64,000 nt of DNA from Escherichia coli (GTDB taxonomy: Bacteria; Pseudomonadota; Gammaproteobacteria; Enterobacterales; Enterobacteriaceae). The stretch is from assembly GCF_003334815.1 (NCBI RefSeq), contig NZ_QOWO01000003.1; one strand, 5' to 3'. Shown one piece after another: positions 18,908 to 20,446 of this stretch; within the stretch, counting starts at the first letter, position 1; every line of letters starts with the position of its first letter. Position numbers and translations under genes: made by a program. Under the pieces are notes generated by a model. It was given only the letters and a program-made list of their open reading frames with translations, did no database searches and was not told the origin of the DNA.

Positions 18908-20446
18908 TTATTCTGAAGCAAGAAATTTGTCGAGATAAGGTACAACATAAGGAACAGAAGTCTGGAATATACCATTTTCAATCCAGTAAAGGGTGTTTGC
19001 CCCTGGGCGTAAATTAAAGGCGGTGAGATATGCATCAGCTGCTTCCCGGTTCATCCCCTTCATTTCATAAACCTTGCCAAGCAACACATAATTTAGCCAG
19101 GACATTTCAAGATCAATGCCAGTATTTATCGCCTGGTAAGACTCATCTGTTTTACCTTTTACCAGAGCACTGACCGCTTTTATTTGATATATAATGGACA
19201 GGTTGTTCAATTCCGGCAGTGTAACAATGTTATCTATTTCTGTGTTCAGTGCTGCTAATTGTTTTTCATCTAAAGGATGTTGAGAATGGCGCACGATATC
19301 AACTAATGCTTTTTCTGCTCTCGCGTAGGTAAATTCTGGGGATGATTGAACAATCTCACCTAATAATTCACTGGCACGGTTCAATGATTTATCATCGCCA
19401 TGCAGTAAATAATCATGTGCCTGATAAAAATTAGTTAATAACGCACCACGATGCGGCAAAATTTTCTGGAGCGTCTCCTGCATTCGTTGTGGCCACGGTT
19501 GGTTTAACGCTTTTGATAAACTCTCCAGTAAATCATTTTGAATCGCCAGCTGATTACCGTTAGTGATGACATAACGTTTATCCAGCATGGTTGAACCATC
19601 TGCATTGTCTACCAATTTTATCGACATAAAGCATTGTTGAGCACGGTATTGGCGCTGATTAACAAACGCAATAGATAATGTTTTACCGGAACTGCTCGGT
19701 TCATCAATGTTGTAGTTGATTTTGTCATGCACCATAAAGGTGGAGAAGGTGTTAAGTGATGTCGCCACCAAATCACCCACGCCTATCGCGTAAGAGAGCT
19801 GATACGGGGAACTCCAGCTGTTACAACTTTTATTTACCATATTAATGTCAATATCGCGTGGATTGAGCAAAATACGCGATTTGCTCATAGGAAGACGTGT
19901 ATCAAGACTTGAAAACGCTACCAGTGCTACACAGATACCTAACGACAACAGGAAAAAAAACCATACCCAAAAGGTAGTGAATCGTTTGCTTTTAACTGGG
20001 GATTGTTCAGGTGGCGTTGCGGTGTTTTGAATGTTAAGACTGTGGGAGGGAGAATCTGTGGCAGGAACCGCCTCTGGTATAGGGGGAGGCGAAGATAGCA
20101 TTATTTCCTCTCCCTCTTCTTCGCTGTACCAGATAACCGGCACCATTAATTTATAGCCGCGCTTTGGTACAGTAGCGATATAGACAGGACTATCTTCATC
20201 ATTATCTTTTAATGACTTACGTAGTTCTGAGATACTCTGCGTCACAACGTGATTGGTGACAATACTTCTCTTCCAGACATTATCGATAAGTTCATCCCTG
20301 CTAAGTACTTCGCCACTGTGTTGAGCAAAGAAAACCAGAAGATCGATTAATCTCGGCTCAAGGGTAAGTTGACGCCCATTGCGGCTAATTTGGTTTATGG
20401 ACGGAGTAACAAGCCATTCGCCAACGCGAACTACAGGTTGTTGCAT
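18908..20446 (-). CDS. cadC: ToxR-like membrane-integrated transcriptional activator of cadBA
   Basis: 512 aa; N-terminal winged-helix DNA-binding domain, single TM segment, periplasmic sensor; PPPIP at residues 120-124. Confidence 0.93.
   Translation of the reverse strand: MQQPVVRVGEWLVTPSINQISRNGRQLTLEPRLIDLLVFFAQHSGEVLSRDELIDNVWKRSIVTNHVVTQSISELRKSLKDNDEDSPVYIATVPKRGYKLMVPVIWYSEEEGEEIMLSSPPPIPEAVPATDSPSHSLNIQNTATPPEQSPVKSKRFTTFWVWFFFLLSLGICVALVAFSSLDTRLPMSKSRILLNPRDIDINMVNKSCNSWSSPYQLSYAIGVGDLVATSLNTFSTFMVHDKINYNIDEPSSSGKTLSIAFVNQRQYRAQQCFMSIKLVDNADGSTMLDKRYVITNGNQLAIQNDLLESLSKALNQPWPQRMQETLQKILPHRGALLTNFYQAHDYLLHGDDKSLNRASELLGEIVQSSPEFTYARAEKALVDIVRHSQHPLDEKQLAALNTEIDNIVTLPELNNLSIIYQIKAVSALVKGKTDESYQAINTGIDLEMSWLNYVLLGKVYEMKGMNREAADAYLTAFNLRPGANTLYWIENGIFQTSVPYVVPYLDKFLASE

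Follow-up and report, generated by a model that had tools for sequence, protein, structure and literature searches.

CadC, an acid-stress regulator and the membrane-integrated, ToxR-like one-component activator of cadBA, carries a run of prolines in its linker. Its gene lies in the same stretch of Escherichia coli DNA (64,000 nucleotides, called hereafter the window) as the gene for elongation factor P (EF-P). Does this run of prolines act as a brake on the translation of CadC, and does the closeness of the two genes have any bearing on it? Our answer to the first question is that the region is, with high confidence, the well-characterised polyproline translational brake of E. coli cadC. The sequence features and gene identities reported below come from the present analysis; stalling, its relief by EF-P and the effect on copy number are taken from publications. 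Evidence contradicting the brake was not found in this analysis. To the second question the answer is most likely negative, as detailed in the last section.

cadC and the linker of its product

The following features of cadC and of the operon that it activates were located in the window.

18908..20446, minus strand: cadC coding sequence, 512 aa (open reading frame list, NCBIfam NF007540, RefSeq annotation)
20126..20443, minus strand: cytoplasmic winged-helix DNA-binding domain, residues 2-107 (PDB 5JU7 chain A; Pfam PF00486)
19973..20125, minus strand: proline-rich linker, residues 108-158 (gap between PDB matches; 17.6% Pro)
20090-20092, minus strand: TCG codon of Ser119, just before the triproline (sequence)
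20075..20089, minus strand: PPPIP motif, P120 P121 P122 I123 P124, codons CCT CCC CCT ATA CCA (direct reading and script)
20081..20089, minus strand: CCT-CCC-CCT, triproline P120-P122, where the EF-P-dependent stall itself occurs (sequence; PMC8129111)
20009..20014, minus strand: second proline motif of the linker, P145-P146 (CCA CCT), in the context TPPE (script)
19910..19966, minus strand: single transmembrane helix VWFFFLLSLGICVALVAFS, residues 161-179 (hydrophobicity)
18911..19885, minus strand: periplasmic pH and cadaverine sensor, residues 188-512 (PDB 3LY7/3LYA; Pfam PF18500)
17209-18543, minus strand: cadB, in the operon activated by CadC (open reading frame and annotation)
14982-17129, minus strand: cadA, in the same operon (open reading frame and annotation)

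The cadC frame is the only long one at the motif site. It starts with the ATG at 20446, and its product, which opens with MQQPVVRVGEW, scored 752.6 bits on NF007540, the CadC equivalog of NCBIfam (cut-off 400). The OmpR/PhoB-type N-terminal winged-helix domain was confirmed by the match to 5JU7 and by PF00486, precomputed on CadC clusters. Residues 161-179 are the most hydrophobic 19-mer of the protein (mean Kyte-Doolittle 2.46), and residues 188-512 are also matched by PDB 3LY8 and 3LY9. cadB and cadA follow directly downstream on the same strand, the two spanning 14982..18543. The protein is assigned to CadC on its score, on the succession of one transmembrane helix and a periplasmic sensor domain, and on its place adjoining cadBA. 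The cadC frame was present in 5,256 of the 5,426 complete E. coli genomes, many copies being 100% identical, and in 5,202 genomes a match covering at least 80% of the gene bears the RefSeq name cadC.

Upstream of the ATG, in the interval 20447-20486 (minus strand; TTTTCGAATGAGTTTCTATTATG), no more than a weak Shine-Dalgarno-like GAG is present, in keeping with a low rate of initiation on cadC, which would add to the low copy number of CadC.

The linker (about residues 108-158) is covered by no solved structure. It is called unstructured in the literature (PMC5936718), where it is described with two polyproline motifs (PMC5936718, PMC5811046). PPPIP, at residues 120-124, lies between the two solved domains (2-107 and 188-512) and upstream of the transmembrane helix. 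A preliminary description of this DNA had placed PPPIP in the CadC linker, at these residues, and had assigned it to five minus-strand codons at 20075-20089. Reading of the minus strand, by eye and by script, gave exactly these codons, coordinates and residues, so that the misreading which the description had named as a possible ground for dropping the claim did not occur. The location in the linker holds as well, since the motif follows the 5JU7 domain (2-107) and precedes the hydrophobic helix (about 161-179). In its immediate context, the sequence of residues 118-125 is SSPPPIPE (TCT TCG CCT CCC CCT ATA CCA GAG). There are therefore three consecutive in-frame Pro codons, as expected of a polyproline stall, in a reading frame that is matched by the CadC equivalog model and annotated accordingly in RefSeq.

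The triproline codons and the EF-P pathway

Three genes of the EF-P pathway are found in the window.

34211..34777, plus strand: efp, elongation factor P, 188 aa (translation, TIGR00038, annotation)
33141..34169, minus strand: epmB, lysine 2,3-aminomutase-type radical SAM enzyme of the KamA family (translation, TIGR03821, annotation)
41155..42132, plus strand: epmA, EF-P-(R)-beta-lysine ligase, a class II LysRS paralogue (translation, NF006828, annotation)

The presence of an EF-P gene in the same window as cadC had been claimed beforehand, and it is borne out by a score of 253.6 bits against TIGR00038 (cut-off 185.8). The title of that claim had named EF-P only, and epmB and epmA are there too. 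EpmB, whose gene is divergent from efp, scored 533.9 bits against TIGR03821 (cut-off 369.3), and EpmA 604.4 bits against NF006828 (cut-off 264). The residue of EF-P that is modified, Lys34, stands in the loop KPGKGQ (codon 34310-34312), so that a modifiable loop lysine and both modification enzymes, as equivalogs, are encoded together. CadC is said to depend on epmB specifically.

According to the published work, the brake operates as follows. A ribosome arriving at CCU-CCC-CCU (P120-P122) forms the Pro-Pro bonds slowly and stalls, at a point in the disordered linker that is past the DNA-binding domain and ahead of the transmembrane helix. EpmB makes beta-lysine, which EpmA attaches to Lys34 of EF-P, and the modified factor binds the stalled ribosome and partly relieves the arrest. 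The residual pause, which avoidance of the fast codon CCG lengthens, limits CadC to a few molecules per cell. Being so scarce, CadC stays balanced with its inhibitor LysP, and cadBA expression requires both low pH and lysine.

Published experiments speak directly to several of these steps. According to the account of Ude et al. (2013, Science 339:82) given by Jung et al. (2018, PMC5936718), ribosomes stall at the two proline motifs of CadC and EF-P relieves this stalling; as cited there, a variant in which PPPIP is replaced by AAAIS is EF-P independent and contains 11–14 copies of CadC per cell in place of 3–5. Brameyer et al. (2019, PMC6320335) give 1–3 molecules per cell for CadC. Translation of CadC needs EF-P together with its modification system (Krafczyk et al. 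2017, PMC5615199). Both this study and that of Volkwein et al. (2019, PMC6544042) use PcadBA::lacZ as a routine assay of EF-P activity; the fusion gives little activity when efp is deleted, and it is epmA-dependent (PMC6544042). A comparable phenotypic pattern of the Cad response is seen with the paralogue EfpL (Sieber et al. 2024). The preliminary description had held that CadC translation needs EF-P to pass PPPIP and that CadC copy number depends on efp, epmA and epmB. The first statement is supported by the phenotypes of the AAAIS variant, of the 3xCCG recoding described below and of the efp deletion, and the dependence on efp and epmA by the behaviour of PcadBA::lacZ just cited; for epmB, there is the general statement on the modification system (PMC5615199). 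The comparison that it had proposed, of CadC reporters in efp or epmA mutants with a PPPIP to AAAIA variant, has in essence already been published, with AAAIS instead of AAAIA, and its outcome was in favour of the claim. Published work also reports a ribosome-profiling or toeprint peak at cadC codons 120-123 when efp is deleted.

The codons themselves have been studied by Krafczyk et al. (2021, PMC8129111), who name CCU-P120, CCC-P121 and CCU-P122, preceded by a Ser TCG, the same codons as in the window. Silent recoding of the three to CCG (3xCCG) raised the output of PcadBA threefold and lowered the lysine threshold, 100 uM lysine, too little for the pH to be neutralised, being already enough to switch cadBA on (PMC8129111). 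The motif could instead have a mainly structural role, for instance as a polyproline-II segment relaying the periplasmic signal to the DNA-binding domain, and it does sit in the signal-transducing linker between that domain and the membrane helix. The silent 3xCCG change refutes a purely structural role: it keeps the protein sequence and alters the response, which means that the effect acts at the level of translation. The unstructured character of the linker and its highly variable sequence among orthologues also go against such a role, and we regard it as extremely improbable.

Is the use of these codons remarkable in itself? CCG makes up 8 of the 28 Pro codons of cadC, versus 56% in 23 other genes of the window. 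Given this low share, three non-CCG codons in a row are ordinary for cadC, and the absence of CCG from the triproline was rejected as a statistical signal. The weight of CCG avoidance comes only from the published 3xCCG experiment.

Another reading of the codon run is that CCU-CCC-CCU also permits +1 slippage, which, beside stalling, would explain a share of the lost CadC output. The codons there are consecutive and rich in C, and after codon 121 the +1 frame is open for 47 codons (the -1 frame for 16), so that the product would be truncated, with an out-of-frame tail of 47 residues and no transmembrane helix. The study of the codon variants mentions slippage with 3xCCC and with 3xCCU (PMC8129111). 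However, the 3xCCA variant, which is not slippery, has an output close to wild type in the same study, and no frameshifting measurement on native cadC was found in the literature. Since 3xCCA behaves like wild type, the contribution of slippage in native cadC is small at most, and a share for it in the loss of output is unlikely. A further possible rival, Rho termination, led us to a paper on transcription-translation coupling (PMC5021804); a statement on CadC was sought there, and only an entry in the reference list was found.

The strength of the brake may be gauged from the residue preceding the triproline. XPPP-LacZ fusions in the N-terminal context of CadC respond to EF-P, and Ser at position -1 was grouped with the residues favouring peptide-bond formation, that is, with weaker XPPP stalling (Starosta et al. 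2014, PMC4176338). The residue at -1 in CadC is Ser (SPPP). The native sequence would therefore be a moderate rather than an absolute brake, which fits a tuning role.

Composition and conservation of the linker

At the Pro frequency of the window (4.4%), a protein of 512 aa should by chance hold 0.044 PPP start positions, and all 57 annotated proteins of the window together about 1.6. Two of the 57, CadC and AmiB, carry PPP. When the CadC linker was shuffled with its own composition (17.6% Pro), 16.8% of the shuffles contained PPP. The motif is rare for an average protein and not for this Pro-rich linker, and its improbability was rejected as an argument for function. Since PPP is not statistically remarkable given the linker composition, the significance of the motif rests on the published experiments.

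Within the species, conservation is high. The 60-mer around the motif was found in 5,234 genomes, in 4,639 of them at 99% identity or more, and an exact 32-mer spanning codons 117-127 in 5,071 of the 5,426 complete genomes. In the one variant inspected, from strain VCSW7, the differences were only outside the motif. These figures say little about the motif itself, because the whole of cadC is 98–100% identical across E. coli.

A wider comparison was made on 115 clusters of homologues of at least 480 aa. Only six of them, all of E. coli type, have SPPPIP at the aligned site. Two clusters lacking the N-terminal part were set aside, leaving 113 linkers, among which 20 have PPP, 67 only PP and 26 neither. 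The aligned site has no PPP in three divergent clusters, two of which are named E. coli by NCBI (PIP in P0007, SLPSVP in P0008), the third, P0009, reading SLPPVP. It is variable elsewhere too, being LSPLAP in Raoultella and MEALTP in a Klebsiella-like cluster. In E. fergusonii (cluster P0012, residues 120-144), the first site is SPPALP, versus SPPPIP in E. coli, and the second is TPPPQ, versus TPPE. A literature search for Vibrio campbellii CadC without the motif returned nothing usable. From the restriction of SPPPIP to E. coli-type clusters and the distribution of prolines over the 113 linkers, the PPPIP brake is lineage-specific, in a fast-evolving Pro-rich linker, and not a general property of CadC.

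Such variability, together with the shuffles, the 26 of 113 linkers without consecutive prolines and the divergent clusters without PPP, would also be expected if the triproline simply followed from the composition of a Pro-rich disordered linker and had not been selected for translation control. Against this, removal of the motif (AAAIS) or its 3xCCG recoding raises CadC output and deregulates cadBA in the published work, and in E. fergusonii the PPP lost at the first site is present at the second, which is compatible with a brake being retained somewhere in the linker. That the triproline is a by-product is thus very unlikely, and a translational brake remains the preferred reading.

Two single-member clusters, P0004 and P0009, match the +1 frame of K-12 cadC over part of the linker (about 19950-20065, minus strand). 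In P0004, 30 residues (TVLTFKTPQRHLNNPQLKANDSLPFGYGFF) are identical to the +1 frame, and the T-run ahead of the transmembrane helix is where the frame is regained; in P0009, the identical segment is VLTFKTPQ. Either the assemblies are in error, or these are genuine double-indel variants tolerated by the disordered linker.

Neighbourhood of cadC and likeness to known systems

The window is of K-12 type: the 23.3 kb from 18900 to 42200 are 100% identical to K-12 MG1655, W3110, C600 and J53, and 5,405 of the 5,426 E. coli genomes hold at least 80% of this stretch at a single location. In a collinear K-12-type record (strain 1A), the order up to cadC is melAB, fumB, dcuB, dcuRS, ghoST, lysU (named lysS by PGAP in this record), dtpC, cadA, cadB, cadC. 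It continues with an integrase remnant, pheU, yjdC, dsbD, cutA, dcuA, aspA, fxsA, yjeH, groSL, yjeIJ, epmB, efp, ecnAB, sugE, blc, ampC, frdDCBA, epmA, yjeM and, further on, hfq and hflXKC. The window differs from the otherwise collinear K-12-type record NZ_CP026361.1 in its tandem tRNA-Gly(GCC) genes, of which it has two (50872-51059, plus strand) and the record three; all genes downstream of the array are shifted by exactly 111 nt relative to that record. This is consistent with the loss, or the collapse in assembly, of one repeat unit.

Counted from the start of cadC, efp is at a distance of 13.8 kb and epmA of 20.7 kb, and the four genes cadC, epmB, efp and epmA lie within 23 kb. This, and the maintenance of the 23.3-kb stretch in nearly all E. 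coli genomes, might suggest that the closeness is functional, the target and its translation factor being co-regulated or co-inherited. The intervening DNA argues otherwise. Between cadC and efp there are about 14 unrelated genes on both strands, with the pheU tRNA gene and the integrase remnant.

20706-20865 and 21063-21138, minus strand: frameshifted tyrosine-recombinase (integrase) remnant between cadC and pheU (annotation)

Strain cM8a carries a conjugative element of more than 19 kb between cadC and the efp side, with genes for ParA/ParB, an SPI-7-type DnaB, topoisomerase III and PFGI-1-class conjugative-element functions on the upstream side of cadC. An integrase remnant next to a tRNA-Phe gene and the element of cM8a point to this site as a hotspot of island integration.

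The neighbours of cadC outside Escherichia argue in the same direction. Upstream of cadC, E. coli has pheU, yjdC, dsbD, cutA, dcuA and aspA. The genes ahead of cadC are unrelated to these both on a metagenome contig of Klebsiella-like type (L004) and in a Raoultella genome (L005), where they encode a lipid A acyltransferase, an acetyltransferase and fimbrial usher proteins. The comparison covered 10-kb flanks and is indirect, since the distance to efp in E. coli is 14 kb. In contrast, Raoultella keeps the cadB-cadA-dtpC-lysRS block next to cadC. The different neighbours suggest that the cad module is a movable block whose place near efp is Escherichia-specific. In addition, a second PPP protein, AmiB, is encoded in the same window. 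PPP occurs in roughly one E. coli protein per 40–50. A functional link between cadC and the nearby EF-P genes is hardly credible on this evidence, and their closeness is most likely an accident of Escherichia gene order, as far as synteny can tell. In coordinates, the block cadB, cadA, dtpC, lysU (11712-18543, minus strand) is matched in Raoultella L005 at 11889-18765.

Lysine-related genes occur in about 30 kb of the window: cadBA, lysU, epmB (an aminomutase) and epmA (a LysRS paralogue). One could imagine that the need of CadC for beta-lysylated EF-P sets a second, translational lysine gate on the Cad system, within a loose, Escherichia-specific cluster of lysine genes. As activation of EF-P consumes lysine through EpmB and EpmA, a shortage of lysine would lower active EF-P and then CadC synthesis. 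cadCBA, dtpC and lysU, within about 14–23 kb of epmB, efp and epmA, would then be a lysine-related cluster. The synteny of the Klebsiella-like and Raoultella loci speaks against a conserved linkage, and we consider the gate a quite improbable proposition.

How does the CadC motif compare with other systems? A first case is that of the CadC orthologues in other Enterobacteriaceae (Raoultella, Klebsiella, Pseudescherichia, E. fergusonii), which share PF00486 and PF18500 and have cadBA adjoining. Their linkers are also Pro-rich (mean 18.7% Pro), but they lack SPPPIP at the site, and most have only PP or no consecutive prolines at all.

The second case is encoded in the window itself.

54466-55803, plus strand: amiB, with an eight-Pro run at residues 130-137 (54853-54876)

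The Pro codons of this run are CCG CCA CCG CCT CCT CCG CCG CCC. It is the longest proline run of E. coli, and a ribosome-footprint peak is found there (PMC4402525). The AmiB tract is thus a second, stronger polyproline tract in the window that holds efp. Like CadC, AmiB has consecutive Pro codons in an expressed reading frame and belongs to the EF-P-dependent polyproline class; unlike CadC with LysP, no copy-number tuning is described for it in the literature examined.

The last comparison is with the CadC motif of E. coli K-12 itself. The CadC triproline is the case by which the function of EF-P, the relief of polyproline stalling, was worked out, and CadC is a standard example of copy-number tuning through translation elongation. 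The literature already describes the feature in full molecular detail, codons included, and it does not represent new biology. What the present analysis adds is modest: a measure of the conservation of the exact codons in complete E. coli genomes, the lineage specificity of the motif, and evidence against a conserved closeness to efp beyond Escherichia. Relative to the K-12 motif (Ude et al. 2013; PMC8129111), the gene, the residues, the codons and the preceding TCG are the same, with no difference between the two.
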